Shown: positions 35,358 to 64,000 of the stretch, piece after piece | Layout of the letters: each line of letters opens with the position of its first letter | Numbering within the stretch: position 1 is the first letter of the stretch | Origin: Escherichia coli | GTDB taxonomy: Bacteria > Pseudomonadota > Gammaproteobacteria > Enterobacterales > Enterobacteriaceae | Assembly (NCBI RefSeq): GCF_036507355.1 | Contig: NZ_AP027877.1 | Length of the DNA stretch: 64,000 nt | Strand: one strand, 5' to 3' | Translations under genes and position numbers: made by a program | Notes under the pieces: generated by a model | Told to the model about the DNA's origin: nothing | Database searches by the model: none | Seen by the model: the letters and a program-made list of their open reading frames with translations, nothing else

Positions 35358-35730
35358 GTTTTGTAACCTGTTGTTGATTACATCCGATCTCACCGCGTGG
35401 GGCATGGATGGGGCAAACTCACTCATTATCTGGTTTAAAATGGATACCTGATCCTGAACGTTTTCTGCCATCCACGATCCGTATACACGATAAACCCTCT
35501 GATTATCAGAGTGTCTCATTTGACACATCACCACGTCGGATGTTGTTACGACCACAGACGCAACAGTAACCTCTGGATAATTTAATCTTTGTTGATGTTT
35601 TTATTCATATTCCGGGCTATGGATATGAGCGATTTTTGATAGTGGTAATTTTATTGTGTTTTAGAATGCGCCCTGAATCGCCACGGGTTTAACAGACACC
35701 TCAGAGTCATTTAAGATGGCTTAAAGAGAG

Positions 35731-36015
35731 GTGCCCATGAGCGGTAAGCGTTATCCCGAAGAGTTTAAAATTGAAGCAGTCAAACAGGTTGTTGATCGCG
35801 GTTATTCTGTTGCCAGCGTTGCAACACGTCTCGATATCACCACCCACAGCCTTTACGCCTGGATAAAGAAGTACGGTCCGGATTCTTCCGCTAATAAAGA
35901 ACAGTCAGATGCTCAGGCCGAGATCCGCCGTCTCCAGAAAGAGCTGAAGCGGGTTACCGACGAACGGGACATATTAAAAAAAGCCGCGGCGTACTTCGCA
36001 AAGCTGTCCGACTGA
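35731..36015 (+). CDS. IS3-family transposase OrfA
   Basis: 94 aa with HTH; A7 slippery run at 35976-35982 near the 3' end for -1 frameshifting into OrfB. Confidence 0.88.
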   Translation: MPMSGKRYPEEFKIEAVKQVVDRGYSVASVATRLDITTHSLYAWIKKYGPDSSANKEQSDAQAEIRRLQKELKRVTDERDILKKAAAYFAKLSD

Positions 36016-36071
36016 GGTACGCCTTTATCCGTGACAACACCTGTTGCTGGCCTGTTCGCCTGCTCTGTCGG

Positions 36072-36884
36072 GTGCTGGATGTTCATCCCAGTGGTTTTTA
36101 CGCCTGGCTTCAGCAGCCGCATTCACAACGCCATCAGGCAGACCTGAGGCTGACAGGGCAGATTAAACAGTTCTGGCTGGAATCGGGATGCGTCTATGGT
36201 TATCGCAAAATCCATCTGGATCTGCGGGACAGCGGGCAACAGTGCGGAGTGAACAGAGTCTGGCGACTGATGAAACGTGTCGGGATAAAGGCTCAGGTCG
36301 GATACCGGAGCCCGCGGGCACGTAAAGGCGAGGCCAGTATCGTGTCGCCCAACAGGCTCCAGCGACAGTTCAATCCGGATGCTCCGGATAAGCGTTGGGT
36401 AACGGACATAACCTACATCAGGACCCACGAAGGCTGGCTGTATCTTGCCGTGGTTGTTGATCTGTTCTCACGCAAAATTATCGGCTGGTCCATGCAATCC
36501 CGGATGACAAAGGACATTGTCCTGAACGCACTGCTGATGGCTGTATGGCGCCGTAATCCCCAAAAACAGGTGCTGGTTCATTCGGATCAGGGCAGTCAGT
36601 ACACAAGCCATGAGTGGCAGTCGTTCCTGAAATCACACGGCCTGGATGGCAGCATGAGCCGTCGCGGTAACTGCCATGATAATGCGGTTGCAGAAAGCTT
36701 TTTCCAGTTGTTGAAACGCGAACGGATAAAGAAAAAGATCTACGGAACGCGGGAAGAAGCCCGCAGCGATATTTTTGATTACATCGAAATGTTTTATAAC
36801 AGTAAGCGTCGGCATGGTTCCAGCGATCAGATGTCACCGACAGAATATGAAAACCAGTATTATCAACGGCTCGGAAGTGTCTAG
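36072..36884 (+). CDS. IS3-family transposase OrfB (DDE/rve integrase domain)
   Basis: 270-aa ORF; frame stays open upstream of the first ATG, consistent with an OrfAB fusion. Confidence 0.88.
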   Translation: MLDVHPSGFYAWLQQPHSQRHQADLRLTGQIKQFWLESGCVYGYRKIHLDLRDSGQQCGVNRVWRLMKRVGIKAQVGYRSPRARKGEASIVSPNRLQRQFNPDAPDKRWVTDITYIRTHEGWLYLAVVVDLFSRKIIGWSMQSRMTKDIVLNALLMAVWRRNPQKQVLVHSDQGSQYTSHEWQSFLKSHGLDGSMSRRGNCHDNAVAESFFQLLKRERIKKKIYGTREEARSDIFDYIEMFYNSKRRHGSSDQMSPTEYENQYYQRLGSV

Positions 36885-37086
36885 ATTATCCGTGGCGATT
36901 CATACTTTTTATAGAATGCAATCCTATTAAAGAGGCATTTTTAATGCCATGGACTTTGACAGACATTACCTATGGAATATCGCAGAGAAAATATATTGTT
37001 ACGAATCCCGATGATTATGATAAATATTCTTACATGGTTAAAAGGATAGTAATAGATGGTCATAATTAAATAATTTATTTATGTGC

Positions 37087-38152
37087 TGAATTTACAATCC
37101 AAGTGCAACAAAAAAAGAAGTACTCATCAACTAGAATATAATTTTGTTTCCACACAAAAACCACTTCCAAATGATGAGTACTTCCTACCGACATCTTACA
37201 ATAAACGAGCGAGAAAAGATAATGATTTTACTCGCACAGGGCAAAAAACAAGCAGAAATTGCCAAAGCACTGGGACGTAGCTCCAGCACCATTTCTCGCG
37301 AGCTGAAACGACACGCTCTAGAAAGCTACAGTGCAACGAACGCACAAAACAGCTATTTGAAGCATCGTCAAAATAGCAAAGCACAGCGCAAATTAGAGCA
37401 GCCTGAATATTTCAATTTGGTGCAAGAAAAGTTTCTGACAGAAAACTGGTCGCCCGAACAAATCAGCGCACGATTAAAATTGGAAAAATCTGAATTATCC
37501 ATTAGTTATTCAACCATTTATCGTGGTATTTATTCAGGGTTGTTTGATATAGGCGAACGCAAAGCCAGTCGCAAACTGCGCCACAAAGGCAAAACACGGC
37601 ATACAAAAAATCATCATGAAAAACGTGGCAAAATTCAGATATCCAACCATTTGAACGACCGTCCCATTTCGGCGCAAAATCGCAGTCGCTTTGGACATTG
37701 GGAAGCCGATACCGTACTGGGTAAAGCGGGTGGAGCTTGTTTGCTGACGCTGACGGAACGCAAAAGTCGTTTTGAGTTGGTGAAGAAAATTCCTGCCAAA
37801 AAAGCCGAAGCAGTCCAAAAAGCCATGATTGAATTGCTGGATTCACATATATTGCGGTCAATTACGCCAGACCGTGGTAAAGAATTTGCCCAACATCGTT
37901 TGGTAACAGAAGCACTGGGTGTAGAATTTTACTTCCCCGAGCCGCATCAACCGTGGACACGGGGAACGAATGAAAATACAAATGGGTTACTTCGTGAATA
38001 CTTTCCGAAGCACCAAGACATCAATCAGTGGAGCGAAGTTGATATTCAACAGGTGATCAATAAACTGAATTTACGACCACGTAAATGTTTAGGTTGGAAA
38101 ACACCTTATGAAGTTTACTTCAAAAAATCGTTGCACTTGGTTTGACAATTCA
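37087..38152 (+). mobile_element. IS30-family insertion sequence (~1.07 kb, AT-rich; ISApl1-like by size and organisation)
   Basis: Single transposase ORF; imperfect ~23-bp inverted repeats TGAATTTACAATCCAAGTGCAAC / GTTGCACTTGGTTTGACAATTCA; right repeat overlaps the tnp stop. Confidence 0.7.
37222..38145 (+). CDS. IS30-family DDE transposase
   Basis: HTH N-terminus, conserved GHWEADTV and TRGTNENTNGLLR motifs; 307 codons from ATG 37222 (track ORF from TTG 37144). Confidence 0.8.
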   Translation: MILLAQGKKQAEIAKALGRSSSTISRELKRHALESYSATNAQNSYLKHRQNSKAQRKLEQPEYFNLVQEKFLTENWSPEQISARLKLEKSELSISYSTIYRGIYSGLFDIGERKASRKLRHKGKTRHTKNHHEKRGKIQISNHLNDRPISAQNRSRFGHWEADTVLGKAGGACLLTLTERKSRFELVKKIPAKKAEAVQKAMIELLDSHILRSITPDRGKEFAQHRLVTEALGVEFYFPEPHQPWTRGTNENTNGLLREYFPKHQDINQWSEVDIQQVINKLNLRPRKCLGWKTPYEVYFKKSLHLV

Positions 38153-45768: not shown

Positions 45769-47436
45769 ATGGCACAAGTCATTAATACCAACAGCCTCTC
45801 GCTGATCACTCAAAATAATATCAACAAGAACCAGTCTGCGCTGTCGAGTTCTATCGAGCGTCTGTCTTCTGGCTTGCGTATTAACAGCGCGAAGGATGAC
45901 GCCGCAGGTCAGGCGATTGCTAACCGTTTTACTTCTAACATTAAAGGCCTGACTCAGGCTGCACGTAACGCCAACGACGGTATTTCTGTTGCACAGACCA
46001 CTGAAGGCGCGCTGTCTGAAATCAACAACAACTTACAGCGTATCCGTGAACTGACGGTTCAGGCTTCTACCGGGACTAACTCCGATTCGGATCTGGACTC
46101 CATTCAGGACGAAATCAAATCTCGTCTGGACGAAATTGACCGCGTATCCGGTCAAACCCAGTTCAACGGTGTGAACGTACTGGCGAAAGACGGTTCGATG
46201 AAAATTCAGGTTGGTGCGAATGACGGCCAGACTATCACTATTGATCTGAAGAAAATTGACTCTGATACGCTGGGTTTGAGTGGATTTAATGTGAATGGTG
46301 GCGGGGCTGTGGCTAATACTGCAGCGACTAAAGATGATTTGGTCGCTGCATCAGTTTCAGCTGCGGTAGGTAATGAATACACTGTCTCTGCTGGCCTGTC
46401 GAAATCAACTGCTGCTGATGTTATTGCTAGTCTCACAGATGGTGCGACAGTAACTGCGGCTGGTGTAAGCAATGGTTTTGCTGCAGGGGCAACTGGAGAT
46501 GCTTATAAATTCAATCAAGCAAACAACACTTTTACTTACAATACCACCTCCACAGCGGCAGAACTCCAATCTTACCTCACGCCTAAGGCGGGGGATACCG
46601 CAACTTTCTCCGTTAAAATTGGTGGCACCAAGCAGGATGTTGTTCTGGCTAGTGATGGCAAAATCACAGCAAAAGACGGGTCTAAACTTTATATTGACAC
46701 CACAGGGAATTTAACCCAAAACGGTGGTGGTACTTTAGAAGAAGCTACCCTCAATGGCTTAGCTTTCAACCACTCTGGTCCAGCCGCTGCTGTACAATCT
46801 ACTATTACTACTGCGGATGGAACTTCAATAGTTCTAGCAGGTTCTGGCGACTTTGGAACAACAAAAACTGCTGGGGCTATTAATGTCACAGGAGCAGTGA
46901 TCAGTGCTGATGCACTTCTTTCCGCCAGTAAAGCGACTGGGTTTACTTCTGGCACTTATACCGTAGGTACAGATGGAGTTGTTAAATCTGGTGGCAATGA
47001 CGTTTATAACAAAGCTGACGGGACGGGATTAACTACTGACAATACCACAAAATATTATTTACAAGATGACGGGTCTGTAACTAATGGTTCTGGTAAAGCT
47101 GTGTATGCTGATGCAACAGGAAAACTAACTACTGACGCTGAAACTAAAGCCGAAACCACCGCCGATCCCCTGAAAGCTCTGGACGAAGCGATCAGCTCCA
47201 TCGACAAATTCCGTTCTTCCCTCGGTGCGGTGCAAAACCGTCTGGATTCCGCAGTCACCAACCTGAACAACACCACTACCAACCTGTCTGAAGCGCAGTC
47301 CCGTATTCAGGACGCTGACTATGCGACCGAAGTATCCAACATGTCGAAAGCGCAGATTATCCAGCAGGCCGGTAACTCCGTGCTCGCAAAAGCCAACCAG
47401 GTACCGCAGCAGGTTCTGTCTCTGCTGCAGGGTTAA
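45769..47436 (+). CDS. fliC: Flagellin FliC (555 aa; central domain differs from K-12)
   Basis: Conserved N- and C-terminal D0/D1 segments; Thr/Ala/Gly-rich hypervariable middle at ~46270-47180. Confidence 0.93.
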
Positions 47437-57427: not shown

Positions 57428-57503
<76 letters not shown>

Positions 57504-57557
57504 GTTTAAAAGACATCGGCCTCAAGCGGATGTCTGGCTGAAAGGCCTGAAGAATTT

Positions 57558-57631
57558 GGCGCGTTAACAAAGCGGTTATGTAGCGGATTGCAAATCCGTC
57601 TAGTCCGGTTCGACTCCGGAACGCGCCTCCA
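57558..57631 (+). tRNA. cysT: tRNA-Cys (GCA)
   Basis: 74 nt GGCGCGTTAACAAAGCGG...GCGCCTCCA. Confidence 0.95.
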
Positions 57632-57643
57632 ATTTCTTCCCGA

Positions 57644-57730
57644 GCCCGGATGGTGGAATCGGTAGACACAAGGGATTTAAAATCCCTCGGCGTTCGCGCT
57701 GTGCGGGTTCAAGTCCCGCTCCGGGTACCA
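57644..57730 (+). tRNA. leuZ: tRNA-Leu (TAA)
   Basis: 87 nt GCCCGGATGGTGGAATCGG...GGGTACCA. Confidence 0.95.
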
Positions 57731-57772
57731 TGGGAAACATCAGAATAATCAAAGCAATAAGCAGTGTCGTGA

Positions 57773-57796
57773 AACCACCTTCGGGTGGTTTTTTTG
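57773..57796 (+). terminator. Rho-independent terminator of the glyW-cysT-leuZ operon
   Basis: AACCACC-TTCG-GGTGGTT followed by T7. Confidence 0.85.
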
Positions 57797-57969
57797 TGCA
57801 TGCAATTCACGCCCTGTGCATATCCTGTGCTCACGGGGTGCAATGAGCTGCAATCTTCAGCCTGGCAATGCCGAATCGAACGTGTCGCTTCCAGCATAGA
57901 GAACCAGGCCGCTTTGCCTGTTTTCCGGTACGCTTCCGGGAAGGGGGCCGCTGAGCAAGCTGTAATGCT

Positions 57970-58709
57970 CTAGCCACCCTGAGTACAAAGTTGCTTAATT
58001 CGTGCAATCACCTCATCTCTGTACTTCTGGTGTCCGCGCATAGCCCTTGGATGGGCAATTCTGAAACAGATTGCATTACCTGTTTTGAACTCCCATAGCT
58101 TCCCCGGAATGACTGCAGAAGTCTCATAGCCGCCCAGCTCAGTAAGCACCTGTTTTATGATGTAGTCTGTTCTCCGGGCTCCAGATGCAAAGATGATGAA
58201 ATCAGGCTCAAGGTGTTTAATTTGTACCGCCAGCAGCTTCAGCGAGGCAATATAACTTCCTGCACTTCATTTTGAGGGCGATTGAGAGGGGTCAGTCCGT
58301 CGTAATCCCACGCCAGTAGATTGGCATACACGATAGCCTGAGGAGGGATATTAAGCTCCCGGGCCAGCCTGAAATGATACTGCGTGAAGCGGCTACGTGA
58401 TTTGAGGTTAGTGGTGCCATAATTTTGTACCGGAAGATGTTTCCTGTAACGATCTACAGCTTCTTCAACCACCTGCCCGATGGTGACGTCAGGTATAAGT
58501 CCCAACACCCGTGATATCGTATTCTTACCATTCAGAGTATTCCAGCCAGCGGTTTCACGTCCAACCAGCATGATTTTTACCGGTGAGTGCCAGTATTCTT
58601 CAAAGGGCACGGGTAAAAAGACGCCTGAGTATTTATCCTCATTCAGGTTAAATGACTGGGCGTCAACTTCCTGCAATATCCGTTTGTACGCGTCTAATAG
58701 CTTTTCCAT
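57970..58709 (-). pseudogene. Hypothetical protein with uracil-DNA-glycosylase-superfamily-like motifs, split by a frameshift
   Basis: 156-codon ORF (58239-58709) continues in another frame for ~89 codons to TAG at 57970-57972; frames overlap at ~58242-58268; motifs KIMLVGRETAGW and IAHPRAMRG resemble UDG motifs A and B. Confidence 0.55.
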
Positions 58710-58789
58710 TCTTCAATCCTGCCCCGTAATAAAAACACCTTCAGATATATATTATCTCCATGATATCAATCAGATACATGAGGATAATT

Positions 58790-59989
58790 ATGCAAAAATC
58801 CTTCCGGTTTACCAATGCATCCATCAAAGCCCTACCTGCAAATACTGATACCCGCTCTACAGAGCTTGAGGTATCTGATACCGAAGTTATTGGACTCAAG
58901 TGCCTCTCAGGTCGAACAGGCAACAAGCGCTTCCTTCTGCGGTATACATTCCACGGTACCAAAAAAAGTATCAGTATTGGCAGATTTCCTGAAATTGATG
59001 TGGGAACAGCCCGGCAAATAGCCCGTCGTCACAAAGAAGCGATTGCGCTGGGAAATGACCCTAAAGCGGAGCGAGATAACTACCGCGCGATGCCAACACT
59101 TGGTGAGTTTTTCCATCAAACCTATGTTCCTTATATAAAGCGCCATAAAAAGTCATGGGATAAGGATGTTCAGCGTTTCACGCAATACATTGAACCTCGT
59201 CTGGGAAAGATACGTTACTGCGATCTCAGGGCCAGAGAGATACAACAGGTGCTGTTTGACATGCTGGAGGGGCGTATTCACGGGCAGCAATATGCGCCGT
59301 CTACCTGTAACAGAGCCCTTGCTATTCTGAAAACGATGGGGCGTTATGCGTTGCGACAGGATGTGCTGGAAAAGAATGAAGCCGATAAGATCCCTTTGCT
59401 GAAAGAGAATAATCAGCGGACGCGCTTTTTTGATGCTGATGAGATCAGGCGCATTCTTGACGCTGCTACCCAATATCCCAACAAAGCTGCCGGGGGATTG
59501 ATAGCCATGTTGTTGTTAACCGGTACACGCAAATCAGAAATGCTTAATGTCAGGCATGAACATATCGACCGGGCCAATCGTACTCTGTTCATTCCTTATA
59601 CAAAAAATGGTCGCAGTCGGACGGTATATCTAAGCGATGCCGCATTATCGATTATTGATGCTATCCCACGAGTTGGCAGTAATCCGTATCTGTTCGCCAT
59701 TAAGGATAATGGAAAACCGATATCGGAACCCCGATGGGCATATGAAAAAATACTGGCACAGTGCGGTATAGACAAGAATGAAGTCTGTTTTCACACCACA
59801 CGTCATTCTGTTGCCTCTTTACTGGTTTCGAGTGGTCAATTCAGCCTGTATGACGTTAAAGCCCAACTGGCGCATGCCAGTATTCAGAGTACAGAACGTT
59901 ACGCGAAATTAACACCGGAACGTATGCGTCAGACAGGGCAGGGAGTGACTGACCTGCTTCTGAATACTGCGGCTACGAAGCAGATGTGA
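58790..59989 (+). CDS. int: Tyrosine recombinase / phage integrase (P4-type), island integrase next to leuZ
   Basis: ~399 aa from ATG 58790 with RBS GAGGA; C-terminal catalytic region HTTRHS...ERYAKL. Confidence 0.88.
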   Translation: MQKSFRFTNASIKALPANTDTRSTELEVSDTEVIGLKCLSGRTGNKRFLLRYTFHGTKKSISIGRFPEIDVGTARQIARRHKEAIALGNDPKAERDNYRAMPTLGEFFHQTYVPYIKRHKKSWDKDVQRFTQYIEPRLGKIRYCDLRAREIQQVLFDMLEGRIHGQQYAPSTCNRALAILKTMGRYALRQDVLEKNEADKIPLLKENNQRTRFFDADEIRRILDAATQYPNKAAGGLIAMLLLTGTRKSEMLNVRHEHIDRANRTLFIPYTKNGRSRTVYLSDAALSIIDAIPRVGSNPYLFAIKDNGKPISEPRWAYEKILAQCGIDKNEVCFHTTRHSVASLLVSSGQFSLYDVKAQLAHASIQSTERYAKLTPERMRQTGQGVTDLLLNTAATKQM

Positions 59990-60019
59990 CTACTTTTTAG
60001 CAAACTATAAATATGGAGA

Positions 60020-60262
60020 ATGAGGATGCATTTAAAATGCCCACAGTGTGGCAGTTGTAATACATTGATAAGTTCAGCAGGAAAACTGCCATCGATAACC
60101 GATAATAAACGCTCTGGGTATATTAGCCTGGAGTTTTTACCTGAAATACTGAAAGAAATTATTAAGGCTATTAAAAAACTATTTGGATTCCTTGAACAGT
60201 GTGAAAGGAATAATGCTCCAGTGCTTATCTGTATGGACTGTGGGTATTATGAAAGAATTTAA
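60020..60262 (+). CDS. Small zinc-ribbon protein (CxxC...CxxC), hypothetical
   Basis: 80 aa with CPQCGSC and CMDCGY; followed by its own terminator. Confidence 0.55.
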   Translation: MRMHLKCPQCGSCNTLISSAGKLPSITDNKRSGYISLEFLPEILKEIIKAIKKLFGFLEQCERNNAPVLICMDCGYYERI

Positions 60263-60310
60263 ATAGAAAACCAATAACTGTAAATAATAGTTATGCGGAT
60301 GTATAAAAAC

Positions 60311-60339
60311 CCCGATACGTTAATCGTATCGGGTTTTTT
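60311..60339 (+). terminator. Rho-independent terminator separating the zinc-ribbon gene from the three-gene cluster
   Basis: CCCGATACG-TTAAT-CGTATCGGG followed by T6, A-run upstream. Confidence 0.8.
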
Positions 60340-60357
60340 GTTTATGAGGATCATTCA

Positions 60358-60729
60358 ATGAAATTTGTCTCGAACTGGCAAGACCTGCCGTCGCTCCTTC
60401 TTCCGGAGTCAGTAATGAGTCTGTTGAAAACAGAGCTGGTACTCCCATTTGAAGATGAATACTCTGCAATGAGTTTCTGGGATGAAGTCGGGGTGACATT
60501 AATATATGTCGAGCCCGATGATGTACCTGAAGATATTAAAGCGCAGGTATTAAATGTGATTCATCAGTTAATTGCAAATCCAGAATTTGTAGTCCGTCTG
60601 ACAGATGACTATTACCTGATGCTTTCTGTTACGGAAGATAACGGGAACGGTATTTATCTGTTATTTCACCCCGATTGCCCTCTGAAGGGTATTGATTTAT
60701 TAGTTTCTATGGCCGAATCACGCTATTAA
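60358..60729 (+). CDS. Hypothetical acidic protein (123 aa)
   Basis: RBS GAGGA; highly acidic; AT-rich codon usage unlike the flanking core genes. Confidence 0.6.
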   Translation: MKFVSNWQDLPSLLLPESVMSLLKTELVLPFEDEYSAMSFWDEVGVTLIYVEPDDVPEDIKAQVLNVIHQLIANPEFVVRLTDDYYLMLSVTEDNGNGIYLLFHPDCPLKGIDLLVSMAESRY

Positions 60730-60754
60730 ACACAAGCAAAACCAGGAACACAAA

Positions 60755-61288
60755 ATGAGTAAATCAAAATTAGTTAAAAATAATGTTGAGTCAGTTTCGA
60801 AGGAGATTAAAAATGAGGCAGAGGTTATTCATGAAAATCTCAGTGCAGATGAACAAACATTATCTGATGTAAAAGACTATCAGTTGCTCATTGAAACAGG
60901 TCAGGCAGAAAAAATCAGTCCTAAGGCAAGTGGTATGCTGACATGGCAACTGGCGATATCAGAGGTGGACAATGAACTTTATCTTCGTCTGGTGGCAAAT
61001 GGCTGTGGAGGGTTGTTCTCTAAGGACTGGATCTCACTTTCAAAGATTGCATCTGTTCTGGAAACACAACCTGCTACCGGCTTCTCATCCGGAGTATTCA
61101 GGCCGCTATTCAAAGGGGCAAGCACCAACAATGCAGGTTTTCTGGCTGCAGTTTTACGCTCCCCGGATATATGTCTGCTGGAGGCACATCCAGAGAAGTT
61201 ATTTACTCATGTATTATACCCGGACTGGAGGGAGCGGTTGAATAAACTTAATACGATTAGTAGCCAGGAAAAGATTACAGAGGATTAA
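60755..61288 (+). CDS. Hypothetical protein (177 aa)
   Basis: RBS AGGA; 25-nt gap from upstream gene, suggesting co-transcription. Confidence 0.6.
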   Translation: MSKSKLVKNNVESVSKEIKNEAEVIHENLSADEQTLSDVKDYQLLIETGQAEKISPKASGMLTWQLAISEVDNELYLRLVANGCGGLFSKDWISLSKIASVLETQPATGFSSGVFRPLFKGASTNNAGFLAAVLRSPDICLLEAHPEKLFTHVLYPDWRERLNKLNTISSQEKITED

Positions 61289-61360
61289 TTTATTTCCTGC
61301 ACTGTTATACAACCAGAAATCACCACACACCACTATTTACTTTCTAAAGGAAAATTTATT

Positions 61361-61795
61361 ATGCAAACCCAATATGCCTTAAAACAGGCAGGATTAACTC
61401 TGCCTGTTACTAAAGAATTTCAGCAGCATATTACTACGCTTCTGGCAAATCGGGTTTTACAAAAAATAACTGAGGCAGTGGTTATTAATTTCCGTGATCC
61501 GGACTACAGTGCAGAATCCGGCGGATTTCATCCGGTTGAAATGCGATTCATCCGTCAGGATAACGAATGGTATTTCGATTATGTCACAGACTTTAGTTAC
61601 ATGGGACGAGTCTACCCGGAACTGGAAAAAGAAATTGATTTTTGCTGGTCGGGGAATTATGTCTTCCATTATCTGGCTGGGGATATTTCACTGGCGGCAG
61701 AGAGGAATGAACTCTGGTCCTTATGGGAGGGTAATTTTATGGATTACCTGTCTATGGGGATTTACCGGGTAACGGTAACTGTGGAAAGTTGTTGA
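61361..61795 (+). CDS. Hypothetical protein (144 aa)
   Basis: RBS AAGGA; Trp/Tyr/Phe-rich. Confidence 0.6.
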   Translation: MQTQYALKQAGLTLPVTKEFQQHITTLLANRVLQKITEAVVINFRDPDYSAESGGFHPVEMRFIRQDNEWYFDYVTDFSYMGRVYPELEKEIDFCWSGNYVFHYLAGDISLAAERNELWSLWEGNFMDYLSMGIYRVTVTVESC

Positions 61796-62096
61796 CCCGT
61801 TATGAACAGGAAGAAAGCGGGCGGCTTTGTAATCTACTGCATGTGGCGTGCATCACAGCATGGAGATGATGTCTCTTTTTCCTGGCTGTTCGCATAAACA
61901 AGTGCAGACACGGGGGATCTCAGATCCCTCGTGATTTTTGCCCCCTATGGTGCATTCTCCAGTAGCAGGGTGATAACGGTTAATCCATTACCCCAACGAC
62001 AGTATTACACCGGTAATAAATGTTCATGAATACAGTTAGTTATGTGGGTTTTGAGGTGGGCTATGTCATCGTTGACGATAACTGAAGGTTTTACAG

Positions 62097-62324
62097 ATGT
62101 ATAAAACTCGCGGTGAAAGGATCGCAGAAAGGCTGTGCTGGATATTACTTCAACTGTATACCGGTAATACGGTATCGGTTAATGATATATGTCAGCGTTT
62201 CGCGGTCAGTCGCCGAACCGGACAGCGTGATTTGTTGAGAGTTGAAACTGTAACGGAAACTATTTCACCTGGAAGGGTAAGGCTGGCAAATTTGATAAGG
62301 GAACGAGTTAGACGAAATTTTTAA
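62097..62324 (+). CDS. HTH DNA-binding protein, possibly a truncated regulator
   Basis: 75 aa; helix-turn-helix-like segment VSVNDICQRFAVSRRTGQRDL. Confidence 0.45.
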   Translation: MYKTRGERIAERLCWILLQLYTGNTVSVNDICQRFAVSRRTGQRDLLRVETVTETISPGRVRLANLIRERVRRNF

Positions 62325-62546
62325 TCGAATCCATATCAATTCTATAAAATATGAAAATTAACGGGAGTAAATATACACTCCCGTTATAATGCAACCTTTT
62401 TTTAACTACTCAAATGATATTAATTTAGGTGCGACAGTGTTTTTATGACATGTTAAATTCGCAAGATCAATAATATCATGAAACAATTTTAGGTAATGCT
62501 GCCAACTTACTGATTTAGTGTATGATGGTGATTTTAAGGTGCTTGC

Positions 62547-62822
62547 GTGGCTTCCATTTCCATCAGATGTCCTTCCTGCTACGCTACTGAAGGCGTGGTG
62601 CGTAACGGCAAAAGCACTGCCGGACATCAGCGCTATCTCTGCTCTCATTACCGTAAAACATGGCAACTACAGTTCACTTACACCGCCTCTCAGCCCGGTA
62701 CGCACCAGAAAATCATTGATATGGCCATGAATGGCGTCGGATGTCGCGCCAGTGCACGCATTATGGGCGTTGGCCTCAACACGGTTTTACGTCACTTAAA
62801 AAACTCAGGCCGCAGTCGGTAA
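62547..62822 (+). CDS. insA: IS1 InsA
   Basis: 91 aa [23 protein letters not shown]... Confidence 0.92.
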
Positions 62823-62848
62823 CCTAGCGCATACAACCGGGCGGTGAT

Positions 62849-63244
62849 GTGATTGTCTGCGCTGAAATGGACGAACAGCGGGGTTACGTCGGCGCTAAAT
62901 CACGCCAGCGCTGGTTGTTTTACGCGTATGACAGGATTCGGAGGACGGTTGTGGCGCACGTATTCGGTGAACGCACTCTGGCCACACTGGAGCGTCTTCT
63001 GAGCCTGCTGTCGGCCTTTGAGGTCGTGGTATGGATGACGGATGGCTGGCCGCTGTATGAATCCCGCCTGAAGGGAAAGCTGCACGTTATCAGCAAGCGT
63101 TACACTCAGCGCATTGAGCGACATAATCTGAATCTGAGACAACATCTGGCAAGGCTGGGACGGAAGTCACTGTCGTTCTCAAAATCGGTGGAGCTGCATG
63201 ACAAGGTCATCGGGCATTATCTGAACATAAAACACTATCAGTAA
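62849..63244 (+). CDS. insB: IS1 InsB (expressed as InsAB' by -1 frameshift)
   Basis: Frame open upstream of the first ATG. Confidence 0.9.
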
Positions 63245-63435
63245 GTTGGAGTCATTACCTGTTTTTGCTGCATATTTGGCCATGCACTTTTGCCATCAAG
63301 TCAGAGAGACAGGGGCACCGTAAGAGACGAAGGTTGCTGCCTGTGATGAGAGGTTATCAGCAATTACAATGGTCACTAATATTTACATAATGTCGGAGAA
63401 CATCATTTTAGTTGAAATAATATAAAGGCGGTTCT

Positions 63436-63762
63436 ATGTATTTACATATCAGAAAGTATCAACTCGTAAATGCGAGATGGCGTGATATCATTGATTTGAC
63501 GGATTATGAAGAAACAATCAAGCAGGTTGTGAGTACATTATTTGGAAATGATTTTATTGAGGTCAGAGTTGAAACGCGTTGTTTTATTCTGACAGTAAAC
63601 AGTACAAGCAGTAAAATACCACACGGCATACTGGTGAATATGGGGAAAAGGCTGGCGGCGAATCTCCAGAGTATCACCTGTCATGCCATGCGGATCTATC
63701 ATGTAAATGGCCATCCTGACGCGCGGCAGTTATTTCACTGTTTTGATGCCGATTGCCTGTGA
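63436..63762 (+). CDS. Hypothetical protein (108 aa)
   Basis: ORF only; beyond IS1 in AT-rich DNA. Confidence 0.4.
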   Translation: MYLHIRKYQLVNARWRDIIDLTDYEETIKQVVSTLFGNDFIEVRVETRCFILTVNSTSSKIPHGILVNMGKRLAANLQSITCHAMRIYHVNGHPDARQLFHCFDADCL

Positions 63763-64000
63763 TTAAGCCCCCAACTTCTGTTAAAGGAGTTGGGGGAGAT
63801 TTAACGGTTATCAGACTGGAAGACAGAATGTCGGATATTTACGGGCTATGATATCCATCAGTGACTTCATTCGCGGTGTTACAGAACTAAATTTCATTTG
63901 GGGTATTTTTGCTCTTACCGCATTTTTTACATCAGTCACCGTTACTGAATAGCCTTCTGACGTCAGCCATTCAGCAACCTCTTTACAGGAATAACTTTTT

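Follow-up and report, generated by a model that had tools for sequence, protein, structure and literature searches.

A 64,000-nt stretch of Escherichia coli DNA (contig NZ_AP027877.1 of assembly GCF_036507355.1, hereafter the window) ends in an island inserted on the 3' side of the tRNA gene leuZ. The part of the island that lies in the window, from 57806 to 64000, is very probably the conserved core of an enterobacterial pipolin, or piPolB element, on the side of the element nearest the tRNA. Pipolins are integrative mobile elements recognized by a primer-independent family-B DNA polymerase, piPolB. The element is not new, as it belongs to a family already on record and occupies the canonical pipolin site; the finding is real but ordinary. 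An earlier reading made from the sequence alone (the original prediction) had proposed an integrase island at this tRNA gene, an interpretation that was supported yet incomplete, as both the pipolin family and the 3' end of the piPolB gene at the edge of the window had been missed.

The pipolin core module and its polymerase

The order of the core, read from the tRNA, was a UDG gene, an integrase gene, a zinc-ribbon gene, the trio orf123-orf177-DUF2787, a 75-aa HTH gene, the insertion sequence IS1, orf108, and the piPolB gene (Table 1). In gammaproteobacterial pipolins, the core near the integration site was described as including IntSXT, DUF2787, a WYL protein, orphans, and frequently a type-4-like UDG (PMC11551731), and a description of the E. 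coli core is also found in PMC7385651. These E. coli elements integrate "at the Leu-tRNA gene" and are flanked by att-like direct repeats, one of which overlaps the tRNA (PMC7385651), the published site being the "tRNA-Leu between pgsA and yecA" (PMC11551731). In the window, the glyW-cysT-leuZ operon (57428-57730), for which tRNA-Gly(GCC), tRNA-Cys(GCA), and tRNA-Leu(UAA) were identified by ARAGORN, lies downstream of uvrC and pgsA. The DUF2787, orf123, orf177, and zinc-ribbon genes were collinear with the pipolins of ATCC 43886 and HCM-25C-3, between the integrase and piPolB, and the module DNA was 98-99.8% identical to elements in RefSeq genomes. The closest relative, NZ_CP019213.3, shared 99.8% identity across the whole 6.36-kb module.

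The last 62 codons of the piPolB gene that lie in the window encode residues identical, at 62 out of 62 positions, to the C-terminus of the 866-aa family-B DNA polymerase (PolB) of NZ_CP019213.3. In this genome, as in ATCC 43886 and HCM-25C-3, the module runs on into a minus-strand gene for an 866-aa "DNA polymerase type-B family protein", and the full polymerase gene was found at this position in all 30 of the 30 best-matching genomes. The KH-X8-KTRG motif, which replaces KxY, and the catalytic D368 define piPolB and were mutated in the enzyme of E. coli 3-373-03_S1_C2 (PMC5695915). Both are present in the PolB of NZ_CP019213.3, with the motif at residues 613-626, at positions that fall beyond base 64000 in the strain analyzed here. 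A search of PDB sequences with piPolB returned no solved relative, and Pfam DNA_pol_B_2 was matched only at E=0.009; because these searches were uninformative, the literature motifs were used for the assignment. Genes for IntP2 and an excisionase are present near piPolB in the elements of the relatives, and in Enterobacterales pipolins this pair adjoins piPolB while a distal cargo module is rich in defence genes (PMC11551731).

Several observations weigh against the pipolin assignment or against a functional element. Only 190 bp of the piPolB gene lie in the window, and the remainder of the gene, as well as any IntP2 and excisionase genes, cargo, and distal att copy, would lie beyond 64000. 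The junction between the left flank and IS1 was found as one piece in none of the 5,426 complete E. coli genomes; the strain is therefore not among the reference genomes, and its downstream structure could differ from theirs. In addition, arm-type repeats were not detected in the 165 bp between the att repeat and the UDG gene, no excision of pipolins has been seen in E. coli, where it was reported to be "negligible under standard growth conditions" (PMC7385651), and the loss of the WYL regulator and the UDG may have rendered this copy immobile.

Two other explanations were weighed. The module could be a pipolin remnant, in which the core and a truncated piPolB stub persist as a fixed, immobile scar while the rest has been deleted or replaced. 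Three decay events are already found inside 6 kb, enterobacterial pipolins often carry IntSXT-piPolB deletions and truncated piPolBs (PMC7385651, PMC11551731), and the window stops shortly after entering the gene. Against this, the 62 visible codons do not depart from the intact gene and the best-matching genomes all carry the full-length polymerase at this position, which made a remnant improbable. Far less credible still was a degraded prophage or phage satellite (P4-like or PICI-like) at leuZ in place of a pipolin. While the integrase has a P4-type architecture, prophages account for most occupants of leuZ in E. coli (PMC11551731), and the small open reading frames (ORFs) fall in PHROG families, the matched families are all of unknown function, and no structural, lysis, primase, or packaging genes were found in the window part of the island. 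Moreover, megablast returned no match in 50,697 phage records and 72,556 plasmids, and the synteny with piPolB elements was exact. The pipolin core module remained the preferred reading.

Insertion at leuZ and the att repeat

A megablast comparison of the whole window with the corresponding region of K-12 MG1655 showed collinearity at 98-99% identity as far as position 57805 and none beyond, so that the strain-specific insertion starts after this position. In the MG1655 annotation, leuZ is followed by the 67-nt small RNA (sRNA) 3'ETS-leuZ and then by yecA. The 6.36-kb module was found, with a coverage of at least 80%, in 285 of the 5,426 complete E. coli genomes (approximately 5%), and an IS-free internal piece (61800-62491) was found in 323 of the same set. 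In contrast, an uninterrupted cysT-leuZ-yecA junction was present in 3,792 of the 5,426 genomes, where the site is empty (70%). Given the numbers of carriers and empty sites, the module genes are accessory and not core. The original prediction of a strain-specific, horizontally acquired island 3' of leuZ, where K-12 has yecA, was thus upheld, and no conservation of these genes as core genes at the locus was observed across the species.

A contiguous K-12-type cysT-leuZ-yecA junction was missing in 1,632 of the 5,424 genomes with a match (approximately 30%). Occupation or rearrangement of the leuZ site is hence far more frequent than the pipolin core alone (5-6%) accounts for, and this proportion fits the published view that prophages are the main occupants of the site in E. 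coli (PMC11551731). The base composition agreed in part with the claim that the sequence becomes AT-rich immediately after the tRNA operon terminator: the GC content of the island part was lower overall (44.3%, vs 49.4% in the rest of the window), but the first ~950 bp of the island had a GC content of 48.8%, and the low-GC stretch (approximately 40%, 59990-62491) begins only after the integrase.

The proximal att copy is present in this strain as a 131-bp direct repeat that overlaps leuZ. A four-way alignment showed that the repeat extends from the anticodon loop of leuZ through its CCA end, the complete 3'ETS-leuZ, and the terminator to approximately 8 nt further. In NZ_CP019213.3, the equivalent of 57675-57805 occurs three times: at leuZ, 29.2 kb downstream, and 50.1 kb downstream, where the distal copy abuts yecA; the last two copies are separated by 20.9 kb.

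The 3'ETS-leuZ of this strain differs from that of K-12 by a G>C and an A>C substitution and a 2-nt deletion, all in its 5' part, and its terminator hairpin (57774-57789) is followed by a T-run. Among the att copies of NZ_CP019213.3, this element-type 3'ETS occurs on the tRNA side and in the middle copy, and the K-12 allele occurs beside yecA, which places the crossover inside the 3' half of the tRNA; the 3'ETS that is now co-transcribed with leuZ is hence the one supplied by the element. The K-12-type copy of 3'ETS-leuZ is left without a promoter beside yecA after integration. The stretch complementary to RyhB was invariant in all aligned att copies, and the predicted duplexes with K-12 RyhB were similar (-45.8 and -46.6 kcal/mol). 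An Rfam search at a permissive threshold returned the three tRNAs and a sub-threshold CopA-like match, and no family match for 3'ETS-leuZ. Because the att repeat holds the complete 3'ETS-leuZ, the expressed copy of this sponge sRNA is swapped for an element-borne allele at each pipolin integration. The embedding of the sRNA in the att repeat is an observation of modest value.

Insertion occurred by site-specific recombination between the attP of the element and the 3' half of leuZ, catalyzed by the P4/SXT-type integrase encoded approximately 1 kb from the junction (985 bp from the end of the att repeat). With the crossover inside the tRNA 3' half, the element supplies the 3' end of leuZ, the variant 3'ETS-leuZ, and the terminator, and the original chromosomal att copy would be displaced to the distal end of the element, beside yecA. 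Judging from the literature on the family, the integrase may also excise the element as a circle, probably together with the IntP2/excisionase pair. The excised circle might then be replicated by piPolB without a primase, and the distal half could carry exchangeable anti-phage cargo and serve as a reservoir of defence genes, both again by analogy with the family.

Gene content and decay of the module

Most genes listed in the original prediction were recovered, including a frameshifted minus-strand gene, a P4-type tyrosine integrase, a zinc-ribbon gene, three tightly spaced small genes, a full IS1 with both inverted repeats, and a further small ORF after IS1; the proposed HTH fragment is more likely an intact gene (see below).

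Table 1. Features of the leuZ junction and of the pipolin core module, in window coordinates (a dot denotes a feature with no strand).
Feature	Position	Strand	Basis
leuZ, tRNA-Leu(UAA); integration target, 3' 56 nt within the att repeat	57644..57730	+	ARAGORN, Rfam tRNA, K-12 annotation
tRNA-proximal att direct repeat, 131 bp	57675..57805	.	alignment with K-12 and NZ_CP019213.3 copies
3'ETS-leuZ sRNA region, element-type allele	57731..57797	+	alignment; K-12 annotation b4759
UDG-superfamily gene (pipolin "UDG"), pseudogene	57970..58709	-	tblastn, indel mapping, AlphaFold2 (AF2) and Foldseek on intact orthologue
P4/SXT-type tyrosine recombinase ("IntSXT" in the pipolin literature), 399 aa	58790..59989	+	Pfam, PHROG integrase, dN/dS
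Zinc-ribbon protein, 80 aa, CxxC...CxxC	60020..60262	+	dN/dS 0.16; phrog_32727; weak Pfam zinc-ribbon match
Terminator-like hairpin, bidirectional, between zinc-ribbon gene and orf123	60311..60333	.	
orf123, pipolin core orphan	60358..60729	+	phrog_32947; dN/dS 0.18
orf177, pipolin core orphan	60755..61288	+	
DUF2787 protein, 144 aa, pipolin core marker	61361..61795	+	Pfam PF10980 2.4e-39; dN/dS 0.21
Terminator-like hairpin closing the orf123-orf177-DUF2787 operon	61909..61933	+	
75-aa DeoR-type HTH gene	62097..62324	+	PADLOC WYL model positions 3-43; phrog_13105 positions 2-63 of 239; Pfam HTH_DeoR
DUF726 (alpha/beta-hydrolase-like) gene remnant, last ~28 codons, cut by IS1	62406..62491	-	alignment to IS1-free ATCC 43886; Pfam DUF726 on intact gene
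IS1, 768 bp	62492..63259	+	inverted repeats, flanks, insA/insB frames
orf108, 108 aa, small conserved ORF beside piPolB	63436..63762	+	relatives' annotation WP_042631080.1, WP_000280683.1
piPolB gene 3' end, last 62 codons and stop, runs off the window	63811..64000	-	62/62 residue identity

This copy of the element has decayed in three ways, namely by a frameshift in the UDG gene, by IS1 together with the deletion of the DUF726 and WYL genes, and by a further loss of 308 bp. The frameshift, at which the reading frame switches in tblastn with the intact paralogue, is a 1-nt deletion at 58248/58249 relative to intact copies; it is shared with NZ_CP019213.3 and is found in neither ATCC 43886 nor HCM-25C-3. 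The gene is assigned to the UDG superfamily by its predicted alpha/beta fold. An AF2 model of the intact orthologue had a pLDDT of 88, and its top 50 Foldseek matches in the PDB were all family-4 UDG, UdgX, SMUG1, or TDG structures (best E=5e-6, TM-scores 0.5-0.6). The Pfam UDG match was weak (E=0.17), and searches of PDB sequences with a single protein of this family and with a 25-sequence profile yielded no UDG match. The motifs of the family diverge from the canonical ones: invariant GRETxGWNT and FRIAHPR sequences occupy the places of the canonical motifs A (GExPG) and B (HPS/HPA).

The IS1 copy contains insA (62547-62822) and an insB frame that extends to 63244, with an A6C slippery site (AAAAAAC) near 62797. 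Of its ~23-bp terminal inverted repeats, the left end has GGTAATGCTGCCAACTTACTGAT and the right end an inverted copy of it. The 9-bp target-site duplication is absent, which fits a deletion adjacent to IS1. Compared with the IS1-free pipolin of ATCC 43886, IS1 replaces approximately 1.9 kb, in which most of the DUF726 gene and all of the HTH-WYL-WCX regulator gene are located. Its left junction is shifted inward by 308 bp relative to NZ_CP019213.3, where the 308 bp missing here are flush with the left end of IS1. Nested deletions that share one right junction are the hallmark of adjacent deletion by IS1, to which the loss was attributed. The WYL regulator, a 300-aa protein in ATCC 43886, is thus absent from this core; as WYL is a frequent marker of pipolins rather than a hallmark, its loss indicates decay and not non-membership. 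In intact cores of the ATCC 43886 type, the DUF726/LCAT-like alpha/beta-hydrolase gene adjoins the HTH-WYL-WCX gene, both oriented against the DUF2787 operon, and the two look like a sensor-effector couple.

The integrase was matched by Pfam Arm-DNA-bind_3 (5e-14) and Phage_integrase (1e-23) as well as by a PHROG integrase family, and its catalytic R, K, HxxR, H, and Y residues can all be read in the translation; an alternative ATG is located at 58760. The IntSXT clade label follows PMC11551731. Ratios of nonsynonymous to synonymous substitution rates (dN/dS) were computed against the diverged HCM-25C-3 pipolin, which is approximately 84% identical. The integrase ratio was 0.03, and values between 0.03 and 0.21 were obtained for each of the five plus-strand ORFs for which a ratio could be computed, which argues that the island genes are real rather than a chance pattern. 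Intact genes remain for the integrase, the zinc-ribbon protein, orf123, orf177, DUF2787, the 75-aa HTH protein, and orf108, and purifying selection acts on the core genes.

Both CxxC pairs of the zinc-ribbon protein were retained in the diverged orthologue. The sub-threshold CopA-like match at 60274-60343 (score 31 bits, gathering threshold 60, E=0.015) coincides with the bidirectional hairpin downstream of this gene and probably arose by chance from that terminator. Gaps of 25 nt between orf123 and orf177 and of 72 nt between orf177 and DUF2787 were measured, and terminator-like hairpins bracket the operon. The orf177 product is confined to Enterobacterales and contains no domain; in its structural model, the first 38 residues were predicted to be disordered, and the remainder formed a beta-sheet and a helical domain with a weak resemblance to a winged helix. 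No match was found for orf123, orf177, or orf108 in NCBIfam, PADLOC, or Pfam, nor any PHROG family for orf108, and the PHROG families matched by the other small ORFs are all of unknown function. A promoter scan returned no more sites than were found in shuffled sequence.

The 75-aa HTH protein resembles the N-terminal HTH of WYL regulators. It had been described as an HTH fragment, but a 77-aa orthologue of 76% identity occurs in the HCM-25C-3 pipolin, and by this sequence comparison it is more likely an intact, stand-alone DeoR-type HTH gene. Its interpretation as the stump of a WYL regulator was also rejected, as the WYL gene is separate and on the opposite strand in intact pipolins and the 75-aa ORF is full-length in the diverged element. 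These uncharacterized small genes of the core (orf123, orf177, DUF2787, zinc-ribbon, and the 75-aa HTH) are the only part of the finding with room for new biology. The result otherwise matters little beyond the correct annotation of the locus: the leuZ hotspot holds a pipolin core module in which the UDG gene is frameshifted and from which IS1 has removed the DUF726 and WYL-regulator genes.

Two other regions of the window departed from K-12. A 2.5-kb segment (35676-38147) in the fliE-yedK interval, which in K-12 is the region of the yedN/intG cryptic-prophage remnant, was not collinear; as named from translations, it contains a putative IS3-family orfA/orfB pair (35731-36884) and a putative IS30-like transposase ORF (37144-38145). 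Additionally, approximately 0.9 kb (46260-47152) inside the position of the flagellin gene had no K-12 megablast match, and presumably represents the variable central domain of a fliC allele for a different H antigen.

Defence content and comparison with known elements

The original prediction had also pointed to tRNA-adjacent integrase islands as hotspots of defence cargo, a remark that applies to the locus and not to the window. The leuZ site is a published hotspot (PMC11551731), and type I restriction-modification (R-M), dCTP deaminase, and Hhe genes were found downstream in relatives. In the window part of the island, PADLOC-DB 2.0 models identified no known defence gene, the single match being a weak one between the 75-aa HTH protein and the HTH end of the WYL model. 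In the near-identical element of NZ_CP019213.3, defence cargo was found only downstream of the equivalent of the window's end. This distal part included a type I R-M system in which YecA-family and cold-shock-domain genes are embedded, together with genes for an M48 peptidase, a PD-(D/E)XK nuclease, a restriction endonuclease, and an anti-phage dCTP deaminase.

The same genome contains a second island of 20.9 kb (1922500-1943516), which follows the first in tandem and is bounded by the middle and distal att copies. This island has an intact UDG-like gene of its own and an integrase approximately 89% identical in DNA to the first, followed by IS1, and its cargo comprises type I R-M, two DUF262 genes, and Hhe. 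As neither piPolB, DUF2787, nor the orphan core was found in it, the options are a pipolin-like island that lacks piPolB and a second pipolin that IS1 has stripped. Pipolin "reinfection" was reported as not seen in Enterobacterales (PMC11551731).

Compared with known systems, the element is most similar to the E. coli pipolins (reference strain 3-373-03_S1_C2; Redrejo-Rodriguez et al. 2017, PMC5695915; Flament-Simon et al. 2020, PMC7385651; Mateo-Caceres and Redrejo-Rodriguez 2024, PMC11551731), with which it shares the integration site, a tRNA-proximal att copy overlapping the 3' end of the tRNA, and the order of the core beside the tRNA (UDG, IntSXT, orphans, DUF2787, optionally WYL, and piPolB). 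It differs from them by the frameshifted UDG, the replacement of DUF726 and the WYL regulator by IS1, and the private 308-bp deletion; these differences are decay events and not a new architecture. The broader group of P4/SXT-type islands at tRNA 3' ends shares an integrase with Arm-DNA-bind_3 and the R-K-HxxR-H-Y residues, the duplication of the 3' portion of a tRNA, and tandem accretion at one att, as seen in NZ_CP019213.3, whereas the pipolin encodes its own replicative polymerase and carries no conjugation or phage genes. A clear homologue of the DUF2787 protein is VC0508 (PDB 2W56 and 2V1L; E=1e-26 for 2W56) of the Vibrio cholerae island VSP-II, which is likewise integrated at a tRNA with a P4-type integrase (PMC11551731) but is devoid of piPolB. 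Casposons and polintons resemble pipolins in encoding a family-B DNA polymerase of their own; in contrast to the tyrosine recombinase and primer-independent PolB of pipolins, their integrases are Cas1 or of retroviral type, and their PolBs are primed by protein or RNA (PMC5695915, PMC7385651).

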